A stretch of 64,000 bases of DNA, from the UHGV virus genome UHGV-0113858, one strand, 5' to 3'. Made by a program: the position numbers and the translations under genes. The notes under the pieces were generated by a model, which saw nothing but the letters and a program-made list of their open reading frames with translations, made no database searches and was not told the DNA's origin. The stretch is from a virus. Below are positions 2,391-23,250 of this stretch, piece after piece (position 1 is the first letter of the stretch; every line of letters begins with the position of its first letter).

Positions 2391-3415
2391 TTGACAGCTT
2401 CCTCTAGGTTAAAGGGTTTTATGTTCAGTCTATCGAAAGATTTTACGTTGTCAAGCCAAAATTCATCTTCATACCCTGCGATCGACATCATCATCAGTTC
2501 TTCCTCTGTCGGGGAGTCCCCCTCCATCATACTCTGTAGCTTGGGGTCATATTCCAAGTGGAACATTGTTTCTTTCGGGGAACAAACGAACATTGCCTTA
2601 CGTGCCTTATTAGCGATCTTTCTGTTCATGATGTTGATAACAGAATGATTTATTTGGCTACAAATACGATCTAATGCGGAAGGCTCAAGATAGTCAGAGT
2701 AAAGAACCAAATCACCACTGATGAGGCTTACATTTTTAAGGGTTAATCTCTCCCCATTATGGGCCATCCAAGATTGGATAGGGGCATTTTTTTGATAACC
2801 GGTGTATTCGACAACCAAACGAAGAGCAAGAGTATCCCTTGACATCCCCACCAAAAGCTGCTTTATACACTCAAGAAAATACTTAGTACGGTAGTTAAAA
2901 TTGCAGAACCCACCAAGAAATGCTTCACCGCAACCGTGACTATAAATATTGATGGAGATTGTTTCTACAAAGCGATGTTTCCAAGGATCATCACCCGTAA
3001 TATGTGATTTGTGGCCTATTTCCATACGTGAAACATTTAGCTTCTGATTCATATCAGAACCATACTCCCGGACATCACCGGAATGCCATTGCCAATAAAA
3101 AGGGCCACCATGAGCCGGGAGTTTATGGAGACATGACAAAAATATGTCCAATATGGGGTTTGAATCCTGTACCCCTTGGAGATAATCTCTAAAGCGGGTG
3201 ATGGGATTGTCAACAGATCTGTCCCTCTCAAAAGTTGAAAGAAATCTCTCTTGAGCAGCCTGCTTCCCTTGTAACAACTTGTCTATGAAATCCCGCTCCT
3301 CATTCCAAGTATAAGTATAGTTTGGTTTTACATTAATATCTACCTTGCTCATAATCTCACTTACCCTCTTATACAAATAATGAACAAAGATACACCGCCA
3401 CTTTTTAGAAATCAA
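2354..3415 (-). CDS. hypothetical protein (353 aa in track; that start is TTG. ATG MSKVDIN near 3349 with SD GAGGGTAAGTGAG is more likely)
   Basis: Long ORF. I checked the track start codon and it is TTG. Confidence 0.5.
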   Translation of the reverse strand: MISKKWRCIFVHYLYKRVSEIMSKVDINVKPNYTYTWNEERDFIDKLLQGKQAAQERFLSTFERDRSVDNPITRFRDYLQGVQDSNPILDIFLSCLHKLPAHGGPFYWQWHSGDVREYGSDMNQKLNVSRMEIGHKSHITGDDPWKHRFVETISINIYSHGCGEAFLGGFCNFNYRTKYFLECIKQLLVGMSRDTLALRLVVEYTGYQKNAPIQSWMAHNGERLTLKNVSLISGDLVLYSDYLEPSALDRICSQINHSVINIMNRKIANKARKAMFVCSPKETMFHLEYDPKLQSMMEGDSPTEEELMMMSIAGYEDEFWLDNVKSFDRLNIKPFNLEEAVKWYQQTRVVFKL

Positions 3416-3485: not shown

Positions 3486-4397
3486 ATGTTTGATATTAAA
3501 AAGAAATTTACCAACAGCGAGATTAAAAGTCTAGAAGAACGGTATCATAAAAAGGTAGAGCGCACAAAGAAACGGGGTTTAGAATTCTCCTTGACCCTTG
3601 ATGACTGGTTCATGATGGGAGAAAAGCTTTTGGGCATCGGCCCGTGCGACTACACCAATATGAACTTTAGCACGAGGTCGGTACATGGCGAAAAAGACCC
3701 ATTGTATCCGACAGTTGAGCGCATTGACGATAAGAAAGGTTATGTTCGTGGAAATGTATGCGTTGTCTTGCAAAGAGCCAATGAATTGAAAGATCGTTTG
3801 GTTGACAAGAAAACAGCCATCACTATAATTGATCCGCTAGACCGTGAGATTGTGCAGGCTATGATACTGAATATGTCTAAAGACCATCTCGAAAAACTGA
3901 AAACTAAATATATCCCACAACAGGAGACAAAAATGGACATGAAAGAACACATGGCAGAAGTAGAAAAGAATCATAACACCGACTATAAAGAGCTTGCTGA
4001 ACACGAACACAAACAACCGCCTGCGGCAGAAGAAACCACTGCGCCTGTGGAAGTGGAGGCTGAACCGAAAGAAGCTATCAGTGTTGCACTGCCAGAAGAT
4101 GTAGCTGTTGCGCTTGCTTATGCAAATTACTGCAATACTTTTGCGAATGTCGGTATGAAAGTAAGTGTGACATATGCTCAGTTCAAGGCAAAATATATTC
4201 GCAGCACCTGTGCAATGACAGGAGAGAAGCTTACTGGTGAGCCTAAATCCATTCTGATTCTGGATCTTAACATTGGCTTTGCCAAAGATAATTTCATCAT
4301 CGTCTCCAAGAAAATGGAAACGGCTATGACTCAACTGATGATCCAGACGGGCCTTAGCCTGCCAAAAGTTACAGCGATGCTGAACAAGGTGGTGTAA
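3486..4397 (+). CDS. hypothetical protein with acidic Glu/Pro/Ala-rich central linker (303 aa)
   Basis: Perfect SD AAGGAG. ATG confirmed at 3486. Confidence 0.6.
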   Translation: MFDIKKKFTNSEIKSLEERYHKKVERTKKRGLEFSLTLDDWFMMGEKLLGIGPCDYTNMNFSTRSVHGEKDPLYPTVERIDDKKGYVRGNVCVVLQRANELKDRLVDKKTAITIIDPLDREIVQAMILNMSKDHLEKLKTKYIPQQETKMDMKEHMAEVEKNHNTDYKELAEHEHKQPPAAEETTAPVEVEAEPKEAISVALPEDVAVALAYANYCNTFANVGMKVSVTYAQFKAKYIRSTCAMTGEKLTGEPKSILILDLNIGFAKDNFIIVSKKMETAMTQLMIQTGLSLPKVTAMLNKVV

Positions 4398-10432: not shown

Positions 10433-11248
10433 ATGACTACTATCTTAAACACTCTCGAACTTATCCCCCATAACAAGGTTAGTTATGATTTTCCTAACGT
10501 GCGCGGCGACCTTGAAAGGCTTTACCTTGATGCAGTATATGCCCTTGGTGGTGTAGAATTCTCTACTGACGAGACTGATGAGAGGACTTTCAATCAGGCC
10601 AAGGCCAGCGTGGAAAGTGTGCTTGATGACCTTAAGCAATACGCTACAGGTTCAGAGGTTGAAGGGCTTCTCGATTATGCAAAAGACACTGAACGTGCCT
10701 TTGTTGAAAGAGGTGAGTATGTACTCAATGCCATGCGGCGCATGAACAAGTTCAGTAAGGATATCTTAGATATCGACAATACTTGGAACAGAGAAGACAT
10801 TGCAAATGGTGTTGCCTGGATCGCAGAGCAACTGGGTGAGATGTTTGATGGAGGATCCCATATACGGTACATGATGCAGAATCGAGGATGGCGAGACCTG
10901 TATCTTGATTACCTCGTGAACCTTGTCGGTAACCCGGTAGTAGAGGTGCTTGCACATTATTCTTCTGCTCATGATTTGGTGTATGGTGTCGATGGTCGTA
11001 TCAAGATTGCTGATAATACCGTTACACTTATGAATGGCCCTACTTCCTTGGTCCTTTCTCCTATTCCCGGTGATATGCGTATTGTTTACACAGTCCCAGG
11101 AAAGACAGAACGGTTCCTGATTTCTGTATTGAGCACATTTTTCATTGACATTTGTAATCCGACTCCAGATGAGGTTCAAATGTATGAAATTTCTACAGGC
11201 ACAACCTATGATATTATTAAATGGAAGGATATTTTCAATCCAAGATAA
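10433..11248 (+). CDS. hypothetical protein (track 10412..11248 starts on TTG; first ATG MTTILN is at 10433)
   Basis: Long ORF with no recognised motif. Followed by a hairpin, gggatatt-N12-aatatccc. Confidence 0.55.
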   Translation: MTTILNTLELIPHNKVSYDFPNVRGDLERLYLDAVYALGGVEFSTDETDERTFNQAKASVESVLDDLKQYATGSEVEGLLDYAKDTERAFVERGEYVLNAMRRMNKFSKDILDIDNTWNREDIANGVAWIAEQLGEMFDGGSHIRYMMQNRGWRDLYLDYLVNLVGNPVVEVLAHYSSAHDLVYGVDGRIKIADNTVTLMNGPTSLVLSPIPGDMRIVYTVPGKTERFLISVLSTFFIDICNPTPDEVQMYEISTGTTYDIIKWKDIFNPR

Positions 11249-11523
11249 GATTCAAAACTGTGGGATATTTGTACGATATTTAATATCCCAAAGATATTTT
11301 AAAATTCGAAATGGTTTTCAAAATCGTTTTTGAAACGGATTTCATCTTACCTGCAAATTTTTAAATAAAGAGTTTTGGGAGTAGATTATCTCAAACCTTT
11401 GTGGAAGCTATGTCGAAAAATGATGCACAAGTGTATGATTGCTATAGGTATCTTGGCATCAAGATTGGACATTTATCTCAAATAGGCGAAAAAGATATCT
11501 CAAATTTTCAGGTAGAAAACTCT

Positions 11524-11730
11524 GGGTTCTCGATCGACTTTTCGTTTTCAAAAACGTATTTGCTCTCACTATCAAAAAATTTTTCTCTATATCAACCGGG
11601 TTCTCGATCGGTTTTTCAAAATCGAGATCGTAATTGTTTTTTCTCTAGAAAAAATTTTTCGGCCCGGTTCTCGATCGAGATCTCAATTTCCAGATCGTAT
11701 TTGTTTTCTTACGCGAAAAAATTTTTTAGG
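11524..11730. repeat. three tandem roughly 67-75 bp repeats (iteron-like; core GGTTCTCGATCG ... TTTTCAAAATCG ... AAAAAATTTTTC)
   Basis: Core motif at about 11524, 11598 and 11665. The A6T5C motif recurs at 11574, 11649 and 11715. Confidence 0.7.
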
Positions 11731-11787
11731 GGTATCGCTCAGTATCTCACATGAAAAATCAGAAGTCAATATTTAAATTTTTTGTTG

Positions 11788-11835
11788 AATGAGAAGCATT
11801 CTTATTTAGTTATTTGAATGATAATCATTCTCATT
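11788..11835. promoter_or_regulatory. two adjacent imperfect copies of the palindrome AATGAGAAnCATTCTCATT (operator-like)
   Basis: aatgagaagcattcttatt at 11788-11806 and aatgataatcattctcatt at 11817-11835. Confidence 0.5.
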
Positions 11836-12105
11836 TGCTGAATGACAGGCACCCCCGGTGTTTTGTACTCCGGTTTCAATGTTCCCGCTATGTGTATAAT
11901 ATAGGATACACGGCCCCATGTTGCAAGCGTCTTTACAATTCTTTACAAATAGACTTTAGGCGAGCTACCGGCGATCCACCTTCCAACCAGGTCTCCGCGC
12001 CTGGTATGTTAGCCCCGCCTTTCCGCCGTGGGGTGGCGTCTCTTCTCCTGTCTGATAAATATAACCCAAGCCGGGGCCGTTTGCAAGCCCCGCGATAAAA
12101 TATTT

Positions 12106-12291
12106 TTACTCCCAGGAGTCCGCGATCACTTCTCCATTTTCCGCAACAATTCTCACCCTGGTAAATCCTGAATTATACATTTTCAACGCAAAGGGTAAAG
12201 GCACGATCCTAACCTGGGGCGCTGCGCTTTCCGTCTCCCAGGTGGAAAGGGTAACCATTGTTTCACTCGTTATTACTTTTGCGTTTTCCAT
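12106..12291 (-). CDS. hypothetical protein (61 aa); the only minus-strand gene in the GC-rich block
   Basis: Carries the block-typical RBS AAAGGTAAACGAAATGG on the minus strand. Confidence 0.5.
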   Translation of the reverse strand: MENAKVITSETMVTLSTWETESAAPQVRIVPLPFALKMYNSGFTRVRIVAENGEVIADSWE

Positions 12292-12395
12292 TTCGTTTAC
12301 CTTTATTTGTTGGCGTCCTTATATAGTACACTAACCAGGCCGGGGCGCAAGCCCACACGAACAAAAATATTTTTAATTTATTTTCATCCAGGGTA

Positions 12396-12424
12396 TTGAC
12401 GCGGGGATCACTATCACTTAATAT
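12396..12424 (+). promoter_or_regulatory. sigma70-type promoter TTGACG-N17-TAATAT
   Basis: ttgacg cggggatcactatcact taatat. Confidence 0.5.
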
Positions 12425-21479: not shown

Positions 21480-23250
21480 GTCTCCACTACTCCCCAAAAA
21501 TAATGCCGGGCAACTCCCGCTTTTGTGTTTTTATACTTTAGGTTTTATCAATCAATAATCAAAAAGTGATAGATGACTAAAACCTGCATAATCGAGATCT
21601 CCAGACGGTAACCCACTAACCAGGGTAAGAGATAAAGCCCCTCAAAATGGCACATATTGCGCTTAAAATGGTATGGCCCTACCTAACAACCCCAACAATT
21701 AATAACGCATGTTATTAACTGAATAAAACATGCATTTTTAAGCATTATGTATGCATAGTGTGAGAATCGCTATCAAATGACAACTTTTATCATCTAGCCT
21801 ATTGTGTGAACTGGTTTTATTGAGCATAAAAATAAAATCTTGTCAAATAAAAATCGTTCGCGTAATCGTGGGGAGTGGCGCGAGCGTAGCGAGCGACACA
21901 ATAACACGGGAGTAACTCAAATGATAATCTCCCCGTCGCTAAAGCGATTAGCAACTAAAGTTGCTAACCCGTGGAACGGGCTATTATCATTTTCGTTCGC
22001 GTTATCGTGGCTCGTAGACGCCTAAGAGCGAATGAAAATTGTTATCATTAAGATGATTACATACGTAATCATTAACAGCCTAATTTTATCACATCGCCAC
22101 GATAACACCGATCACGCCCTGCGTGATCGCTCCCGTGTTATTGTGTCGATAGATATCGATTAGCGTAAACGCTAACCCGTTTCGGGCATTGATTGTGTCG
22201 GTATGTGATGATAACACATGGTTACTATATGCGATCAAATCGCATTAAATCGTGAATAATGGTTGACAAACCAGAATTATTGATAATGAAAACATGTTGT
22301 TTTTGAGCATAGTTTGCCTGAAGTGTCAATATAAATTTATCATAGGGAATAGCTATCAATCCCTTGCGTAGCAATAAAGAAAATAGTTACCTATTGTAAC
22401 TATTTCAATGCTTTAGCATTGCCGGGTATCCGGTCCGTAACGGTGTTGATGGGAATGATTATCATTGCGGAAATGCTCAAAGTATAGCTGTGTGTTAAAC
22501 ACAATTCTCTCTCCTTGTCAAGCTTTTATTTATAAATTTACAAAATATTTATATTTGCGGAATGATTCTCATTTCGAAATTGAATTCGAAATCGAAATAA
22601 TAATGATTCTCATTCGTCGTCTCATTCACAAAACAACCCTAAAACATGAATAATCACACATGAAACTATCACCACAGTAACAGTCACACCATGTAATGAC
22701 CTGAAGCGGCTGGCCTATGCGTCGCACTGGTAACATTGGGGCATTATTAGCTTGCTATGTGTTGTTATCTAGTGCGTATAACGTGTTTTATGTTAAATGG
22801 CGTAATTCATATAAATATAAACAAGTCAATAGCAAATCGTGCTCTAAGCTGGCAAACCATATGCTTGCTATGTATCACACACAATTATTATTAGTTTCGG
22901 CAAGTAACTATCATGTCTGAGGAGGCCCCGAGGAACCGGGAACCGGATCGACCTTGCCCATGATATTTTGTAAAGATCCGTAAAAATAGTTGACGCCCGG
23001 AGCTGTCCGTCTAGCACCTCAGACAGTGCGAATGCTCCAAAACACCCAGACAGATATTTTTCGGCAAGTGATATTTTCGGCAGGGGGCATGTTTTGATTT
23101 CCCCACGGGGGAAGGGGTGGTTATACGGGGAAAACAGGGGCCTGTTTACGGTATCGACATATCGGGGAGTCCCTTCAGATTGTGTGTTAATGAAATGAGT
23201 ACGTAGTACAATGAGAATCATTCTCATTTACAGACAACCGGGCAGGTCCG
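21480..23250. other. 1.8 kb noncoding, repeat- and palindrome-rich island (candidate origin, packaging or regulatory region)
   Basis: No credible ORF. Direct repeats CGTTCGCG(T/A)TATCGTGG (about 21854 and 21994). Inverted GTTATCGTGGC / GCCACGATAAC (about 22000 and 22097). GATAACAC repeated three times. Palindromes TTAGCAAC-TAAA-GTTGCTAA (about 21947) and TTAGCGT-AAA-ACGCTAA (about 22160). TCGAAAT repeated three times (about 22575). Confidence 0.6.
23210..23228. promoter_or_regulatory. perfect 19-bp palindrome AATGAGAATCATTCTCATT (operator-like), at the right edge of the noncoding island
   Basis: Related copies AATGATTCTCATT at 22561-22573 and 22602-22614. Confidence 0.55.

Follow-up and report, generated by a model that had tools for sequence, protein, structure and literature searches.

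The lambdoid phage origin (ori lambda) consists of four iterons of 19 bp, internally dyad-symmetric and accompanied by A-tract bends, followed by an AT-rich region and then by a palindrome. At other phage origins transcription is involved: the primary origin of T7 combines promoters 1.1A and 1.1B with an AT-rich region, oriF and oriG of T4 have a middle promoter and a downstream unwinding element, and the ori of the lactococcal phage c2 is a transcription-activated origin. Longer repeats occur in crr of P4, where two 120-bp repeats carry iterons, and in sopC of F, where each of twelve 43-bp repeats contains an inverted repeat. The locus considered here is an array of three tandem units in a 64,000-nucleotide stretch of a virus genome (UHGV virus genome UHGV-0113858; this whole stretch is referred to as the window, and its coordinates are used throughout). 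We tentatively read these units as the core of an essential non-coding cis-acting element, of which a replication origin seems the likeliest function.

Judged by its sequence, the window belongs to the genus Mydovirus of the subfamily Vequintavirinae; the 5 kb around the array are 94-97% identical to the Mydovirus phages KNP2, BIS47, KB57, Mydo and KPP-1. The Mydovirus relatives of the window are phages of Klebsiella, Proteus and Raoultella, and Mydovirus phages in general are virulent myoviruses with genomes of about 143 kb and are relatives of coliphage rV5. KPP-1 (143 kb, with 99.7% identity to the window at the locus) served as a whole-genome stand-in. The three units are as follows.

11522-11595: unit 1, with core GGTTCTCGATCG at 11525-11536, palindrome CGTTTTCAAAAACG, CGTATTTG, and A6T5 at 11574-11584
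11596-11662: unit 2, with core at 11599-11610, inverted repeat TCTCGAT-N12-ATCGAGA, CGTAATTG, and A6T5 at 11649-11659
11663-11729: unit 3, with core at 11666-11677 within the 12-bp palindrome TCTCGATCGAGA, CGTATTTG, and A6T6 at 11716-11727

Three tandem units had been noted in a preliminary description of this DNA, and they are real: repeat finding (family copies at 11522-11585, 11596-11659 and 11663-11726, with spacings of 74 and 67 and 69-78% identity), Tandem Repeats Finder (TRF; period 67, 1.9 copies, score 165) and self-BLAST of units 1-2 against units 2-3 (E = 8e-12) all agree. The core GGTTCTCGATCG is exact in 3/3 units and has no other copy in the 64 kb, and the relaxed core GG[TG][TA]CTCGATC and the exact A6T5 are both confined to the array in the whole 143-kb KPP-1 genome; the short form of the array cores is CTCGATCG. 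Each unit contains a conserved block of about 40 bp, GGttCTCGATCG..TTTTC..TTTC.A.A.CGTATT, with dyad symmetry inside it, and the consensus of 24 units is GGttCTCGATCGa.tTTTCa.ttTC.AaAtCGTATTttttcT. The 14-bp palindrome of unit 1 is altered symmetrically in PVP-SE1, to CGATTTCAAAATCG. In most genera an A6T5 tract, a type of A-tract that bends DNA, lies 3' of the conserved block. Two motifs were previously ascribed to every unit, but unit 3 lacks both: where units 1 and 2 have TTTTCAAAA(T/A)CG and A6T5C, it has TCTCAATTTCCAG and A6T6A.

The array lies inside an 857-bp stretch without a credible gene (11249-12105), which is embedded in a long block of small plus-strand genes. On its left is a plus-strand gene of unknown function with its stop at 11248, and on its right a small minus-strand gene at 12106-12291 (DUF7170). 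The region of the array was correctly described as AT-rich and intergenic: with a GC content of 0.36 it is the most AT-rich kilobase of the 64-kb window. A stability scan based on nearest-neighbour energies puts the least stable 500 bp of the 64 kb at 11161-11660, about 4 standard deviations from the mean, and the matching 500 bp is the least stable of the whole KPP-1 genome. The least stable DNA flanks the array, with the 60-bp minimum of the locus at 11770-11829, to the right of the array.

By blastn, the array is 97-100% identical within Mydovirus, compared with 95-99.7% for the whole 862-bp non-coding stretch and 94-97% for the flanking 5 kb; it is about 73-77% identical in Seunavirus (PVP-SE1, 4MG, GAP31) and Avunavirus, and leaves traces in Certrevirus. 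Alignment of nine phages, with extraction of the units, gave three units in every phage. The core spacings are 74/67 in Mydovirus, 75-76/67 in Seunavirus, 75/67 in Avunavirus and 78/63 in Certrevirus, with a distance of 141-143 bp from the first to the third core in all four genera, and the A6T5 block is kept in Mydo-, Seuna- and Avunavirus. In Vequintavirus (JES2013, Bas53) there are two good units and a degenerate third, in unchanged order. Units in the same position in different genomes are 80% alike, while units in different positions of one genome are 72% alike, which argues that the triplication predates these genera and that there has been no concerted evolution. Each unit thus appears to be under constraint, and the triplication to be old.

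The same plan extends to the subfamily Stephanstirmvirinae, where the locus again has GATATTT words, a spacer, three units and palindromic boxes, with a unit sequence that is unrelated. In phage alia the three units are spaced at 67/75 bp (TRF period 67, score 185), and the array of phAPEC8 spans 138 bp. Retention of the layout without the sequence suggests a structure read by a co-evolving protein. Outside these phages, a three-core pattern scan of 185,579 bacterial and archaeal genomes gave 4 matches, and the 2 inspected are unrelated tandem repeats in metagenome-assembled genomes; with 2/4 matches inspected, that set gives no indication that the array has a copy in a prophage, satellite or plasmid. 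A scan of IMG/VR found 14 contigs with one array each, 10 of them of 142-153 kb and 4 of 38-98 kb.

A requirement for the locus is indicated by the transposon saturation of Bas54, a Vequintavirus, in the HIDEN-SEQ preprint (10.1101/2025.11.20.689424, Extended Data Tables 2 and 8). Three annotated reading frames there (Bas54 81475-82064; 2727-3316 in the Bas53 extract) lie over the non-coding array, spacer and palindromes. Their entries in the preprint are these.

bas54_0100, 147 bp: TA sites hit 1/3, call NA
bas54_0101, 105 bp: TA sites hit 0/11, called 'Essential'
bas54_0102, 279 bp: TA sites hit 5/15, called 'Strong fitness defect'

Mean reads for the three are 5, 0 and 13, compared with 150-600 for their neighbours (10.1101/2025.11.20.689424). 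Eleven genes at 0088-0094 and 0096-0099 and six at 0104-0109 are non-essential, 0095 is scored 'Reduced fitness', and the preprint does not discuss bas54_0100-0102 (10.1101/2025.11.20.689424). Bas53, a sister phage of Bas54, is identical to it in the lengths of the open reading frames (ORFs), the gaps and the TA counts (21, 3, 11, 15, 13), which validates the mapping of the Bas54 data to the array. By alignment to the window, bas54_0100 corresponds to units 1-2 (about 11505-11655), bas54_0101 to unit 3 and the AT-rich spacer (about 11660-11775), and bas54_0102 to the palindromes and beyond (from about 11819); unit 3 aligns with the start of the insertion-free bas54_0101. The three frames are probably not genes. 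The flanking genes are mostly dispensable and can take insertions, so that a cis-acting element best accounts for the requirement, better than a need to express some adjoining gene; a trans-acting RNA is less likely.

The array is accompanied on both sides by further elements.

11264, 11275 and 11292 (span 11264..11298): three GATATTT(G) words just 3' of the upstream stop codon, two of which form a hairpin
11305..11343: TTCAAAATCGTT, 2.2 copies, with 12-bp periodic T-tract/A-tract words; an imperfect inverted repeat (TRF and inverted-repeat finding)
11386-11395, 11473-11482 and 11496-11505: three copies of TTATCTCAAA, the last two 22 bp apart, in a spacer that is otherwise poorly conserved
11741..11769, minus strand: sigma-70-like promoter into the array, with -35 TTGACT at 11769-11764, a 17-bp spacer ending TGA, and -10 GATACT at 11746-11741
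11740..11830: AT-rich spacer separating the units from the palindromes, a candidate unwinding element, containing the least stable 60 bp of the locus (11770-11829)
11788-11806 and 11817-11835: two palindromic 19-bp boxes (AATGAGAATCATTCTCATT type), with a conserved tail behind them that ends in CGGTGTTTTG

All aligned relatives have 2-4 copies of GATATTT at the equivalent place. The hairpin reported earlier at this point is real (arms 11258-11269 and 11282-11293, 92% complementary) but lineage-specific, the relatives having direct GATATTT(G) words instead. The tract at 11305..11343 belongs to the window's least stable 200 bp (11175-11374). An additional copy of TTTTCAAAATCG to the left of the units is also present, though at 11315-11326 and not at about 11327 as first placed. 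The TTATCTCAAA motif occurs twice, at period 24, in phAPEC8, even though the units differ between the subfamilies. To the right, the AT-rich spacer aligns with the 11 TA sites of Bas54 that are without insertion, and the palindromic boxes with their tail form an invariant block in the alignments.

The sigma-70-like sites in the non-coding island, which are consensus matches and not mapped promoters, are all on the minus strand (11769->11741, 11926->11898 and 12086->12058). Homologous positions carry such sites in PVP-SE1 (3/3), CR9 (two) and alia (one). The PVP-SE1 equivalent of the site adjacent to the array (1752->1723) is TTGACA-18-GAAAAT with a TG, matching at 10/12 positions, and in 4MG and Av-05, compared by eye, the -35 box of this site is kept, as are its TGn extension and its critical -10 positions. 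A promoter directed into the array is predicted in three genera; the scan did not find the array-adjacent site in CR9.

The proposal that the array is either a replication origin or a multi-site regulatory array is strengthened by the conserved number, span and position of the units, by their location in the least stable DNA and by the scarcity of insertions in Bas54, though these do not separate the two functions. We tentatively favour an origin because it accounts for more of the observations than the other readings do: unique repeats, unstable flanks, palindromes, promoters, essentiality in Bas54, and the lack of a known origin. No origin of an rV5-like phage came up in a search of the literature, and the skew analysis in the rV5 genome paper revealed nothing but changes in the direction of transcription (PMC3606486). 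Clustered, unique direct repeats, as expected of an iteron origin, are found here as three units with a core unique in 143 kb, and the adjacent AT-rich DNA expected for unwinding is found as the least stable 500 bp.

We infer that initiation would proceed as follows. A sequence-specific protein would bind the three units; it would probably be encoded by the phage, since from one subfamily to the other the units change in sequence but not in layout. The bound protein, together with the A-tract bends, would organise the DNA, and the neighbouring AT-rich DNA (11740-11830 and/or 11175-11374) would then melt, possibly aided by host RNA polymerase transcribing leftward from the 11769->11741 site. 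The primase-helicase and polymerase of the phage would then start synthesis; the KPP-1 annotation includes a T7-style primase-helicase and a DNA polymerase of the phage's own.

Several observations weigh against an origin. The units have a period of 63-78 bp and a conserved block of about 40 bp, whereas classical iterons are of 17-22 bp and helically phased, so the label 'iteron-like' is a loose one, the period being 3-4 times that of classical iterons. In Certrevirus the A6T5 blocks are replaced by GC-rich sequence, and in Bas53 the scan did not find the leftward array-adjacent promoter. DnaA boxes are not enriched, a single DnaA-like 9-mer at 11891-11899 being at the level of chance, and the locus has no match to the IHF consensus. 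No initiator-like gene was found near the locus when the 20 neighbouring proteins were compared with Pfam and PHROGs, a search that a distant or novel initiator could escape; these proteins match only families of unknown function, MazG, Srd-like anti-sigma/HNH, DUF2201/VWA and DUF7170. The plus-strand GC skew, about +0.13 over 4-11 kb, falls across the array to about +0.03 over 12-20 kb, the reverse of the rise expected at a bidirectional origin with co-oriented genes on either side. The transposon evidence comes from another genus and bears on essentiality, not on a function in replication. Bas54 also takes no insertions in a second non-coding region, about 2.5 kb long and situated at a convergent junction (10.1101/2025.11.20.689424). 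This second region, which corresponds in position to the terminal-repeat region of the window, could hold the origin instead.

The main rival to an origin is transcriptional control, which we consider unlikely, though less so than the other alternatives. The units and the palindromic boxes would then serve a regulator of phage or host origin as operators or enhancer-like sites, and this regulator would control the leftward promoter cluster and/or an early-to-middle switch, and the locus would be essential because mis-regulation is lethal. The dyad-symmetric sub-sites in each unit and their symmetric substitutions between genera are consistent with such sites, as are the three positionally conserved minus-strand promoter-like sites, the insertion-poor character of the locus in Bas54, and the confinement of the 19-bp palindrome to this locus and the surroundings of the terminal-repeat region, as for an operator set. 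However, most of the adjoining Bas54 genes are dispensable, and there is no essential gene nearby that depends on these promoters; transcripts running leftward would be antisense to genes that are themselves non-essential. Nor are a fixed span of about 141 bp and three units of such length usual features of operators.

Rather less probable is an essential cis-acting nucleoprotein element of a kind undescribed in virulent phages and distinct from both classical origins and packaging sites. Such an element could conceivably be made up of three composite units, each about 70 bp long, with their number and their span of about 141 bp fixed over two subfamilies and their sequence wholly replaced. 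Its action might, with a similarly slight probability, be coupled to the palindromic boxes, which also flank the terminal repeat.

It is improbable that the units act as RNA, either as an essential non-coding RNA or as an antitoxin-mimic or decoy repeat RNA like the pseudo-ToxI of PhiTE. A predicted promoter is directed into the array, and there is a precedent in the subfamily in the functional repeat RNA of PhiTE (PMC3475682). The minus-strand fold has z = -3.0, but this is explained by the palindromic words common to the units. In the nine phages, RNAalifold gave weak consensus energies, -13.4 and -7.6 kcal/mol over 239 columns, with covariation of about 0 on both strands, the predicted pairs being mostly of the palindromic cores with each other; folding and RNAalifold on these phages thus gave no conserved RNA structure of the array on either strand. 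A scan of the whole window against Rfam gave no match. The sequence of the insertion-free spacer is not conserved between genera. A direct link to pseudo-ToxI was rejected, as that element has another locus and another period (PMC3475682): it lies at 106,714-106,772 in PhiTE, where the array is at about 39.2-39.5 kb, and the period of the array is 63-78 bp, not 36.

Still less credible is a packaging (pac) or terminus-related site. The records of EC152 and RUS_R7 begin or end within the array, and RUS_R7 carries an 'attR' repeat feature there, but only two units are left in RUS_R7, as is typical when an assembly collapses at a repeat, and both record breaks are probably assembly breaks or collapses at the tandem repeat. 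KPP-1 has a 514-bp direct terminal repeat, determined with PhageTerm (PMC9862379), which maps to 22498-23011 of the window at 96% identity, 11 kb from the array; the terminus or pac reading was rejected on the position of this repeat. PhiTE and PVP-SE1 are reported to be circularly permuted (PMC3475682). The physical ends of the genome probably lie inside the window. The region 22498-23011 is ORF-poor and AT-rich, and lies between convergent gene blocks.

The array is crossed by one further feature.

11401..11754, plus strand: 117-aa open frame, judged not to be a gene

The earlier opinion that this frame is not a gene is borne out, since neither the frame nor its extent is conserved and annotators disagree about it; it appears to be a by-product of stop-poor repeats. 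The core spacings vary between genera by 1-4 bases, in non-multiples of three, and the conserved blocks are therefore read in different frames: the longest plus-strand frame meets the cores in phases 1/0/1 (window, PVP-SE1), 0/1/2 (GAP31, 4MG) or 0/0/1 (EspYZU14). In each phage, 2-5 further frames of at least 40 codons are open through the array, on both strands. The frame is not annotated in KNP2, 4MG or Av-05; Mydo annotates it without a ribosome-binding site feature, which the adjoining Mydo genes have; GAP31 annotates it with a 'poor ribosome-binding site'; and in EspYZU14 the annotated ORF is on the opposite strand. There is no conservation at the protein level between genera, and the DNA motifs are nevertheless kept. 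The 34-codon ORF of Vequintavirus has no counterpart in the window, and between Bas53 and JES2013 it differs at 4 codons, 3 of them non-synonymous. That the 117-aa ORF or small ORFs such as bas54_0101 are real genes is hardly to be credited, in spite of the essential score of bas54_0101, the annotation of the longer ORF in Mydo, PVP-SE1, GAP31 and KPP-1 and its match to phrog_25933 (E = 5e-43), a PHROG built from annotated copies, which match because they share the DNA repeat.

Two other interpretations of the repeats were set aside. A Dam/SeqA-type cluster was considered for the 6 GATC sites in the array, but with 352 GATC observed genome-wide and 372 expected the site is not depleted, there is a denser GATC cluster at about 15.2 kb, and the second GATC of each unit is not conserved. 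A CRISPR-like repeat-spacer arrangement was rejected since conservation spreads across the entire unit.

The palindromic boxes form a small family of their own. The sequence AATGAGAATCATTCTCATT occurs at 5 sites in the 64 kb, where 0.03 are expected (11788-11806, 11817-11835, 22448-22466, 22596-22614 and 23210-23228), only beside the array and around the terminal-repeat region. The boxes at 11817 and 23210 have in common a tail of about 35 bp, ending CGGTG(T/A)TTG, and phage alia has 5-6 such boxes. In its 7-1-7 form, TGAGAATnATTCTCA, the 19-bp palindrome is one symmetric change from a Fur/PerR-type box, and the boxes may be the operator set of a Fur-family-like regulator; the classical Fur box (GATAATGATAATCATTATC) has no match at up to 3 mismatches.

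Further to the right, the stretch 11930-12045 is GC-rich and almost invariant, with about 84% identity even in the phi92/phAPEC8-like phages, and is absent from Vequintavirus. It starts with two copies of TCTTTACAA, which resembles the boxA antitermination sequence, and is bracketed by the conserved minus-strand promoter-like sites 12086->12058 and 11926->11898. Over 11905-12110 the folding energy of this element is not in excess on either strand, and there is no Rfam match. A minus-strand promoter-like module, GGGCTTGC..CCCCGG..GGTTA..TAT, is present at 12058-12086 and again at 12330-12375, the second copy being upstream of the DUF7170 gene (12291-12106). On the plus strand, the site TTGACG-17-TAATAT at 12396-12424 is separated from the next gene by a leader that is GC-rich and about 150 nt long. 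At the other end of the plus-strand block, its first gene (3486-4397), at a divergent junction, matches the Srd-like anti-sigma and 'decoy of sigma-70' families, and gp11 of rV5 is reported to give the same match. A tRNA scan of the window found none.

If the array is an origin, it provides a candidate locus of about 600 bp for the origin of the rV5-like phages (Vequintavirinae) and their phi92/phAPEC8-like relatives, in which the origin had not previously been located. The rV5-like phages and their relatives are widely used in phage therapy and biocontrol. In addition, bas54_0101, an 'essential gene of unknown function', can be re-read as a non-coding element, and phrog_25933 and many 'hypothetical protein' annotations are probable artefacts of a DNA repeat.

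Of the systems with which the array may be compared, pseudo-ToxI of PhiTE shares with it the presence of tandem non-coding repeats in a Vequintavirinae genome. It differs in its locus, in its 36-nt period, in being a known RNA pseudoknot and in its variable copy number (PMC3475682), whereas no RNA structure was found for the array, whose copy number is fixed. P4 crr, F sopC and plasmid iteron origins are like the array in having long direct repeats that contain a small dyad-symmetric protein-binding site (putative in the array), and in a repeat sequence that co-varies with lineage. Unlike crr and sopC, the array belongs to a virulent 143-kb myovirus with no plasmid state, its copy number does not vary from three, and no partner gene (Rep, ParB, SopB) lies nearby.

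With the T7, T4 and c2 origins the array shares a predicted promoter directed into AT-rich non-coding DNA, opposite to the neighbouring genes, and the T7-style primase-helicase and own DNA polymerase in the KPP-1 annotation recall the setting of T7. The promoters here are, however, predictions from the host sigma-70 consensus, and the array-adjacent one was not found in Vequintavirus; moreover, the T7, T4 and c2 origins lack a three-unit repeat, and those of T7 and T4 are individually dispensable. In ori lambda, the units are shorter than the 63-78 bp units of the array with their block of about 40 bp, and there are four rather than three. The open frame over the array, unlike that at ori lambda, does not encode an initiator, O/P-like proteins were not found, and the replication role of the array is putative. 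Nevertheless, the order of the elements is the same in both, with symmetric bent direct repeats followed by the least stable AT-rich DNA and then by palindromes. In both, too, an open frame overlaps the repeats and the element is single and essential, the latter being deduced for the array from Bas54.

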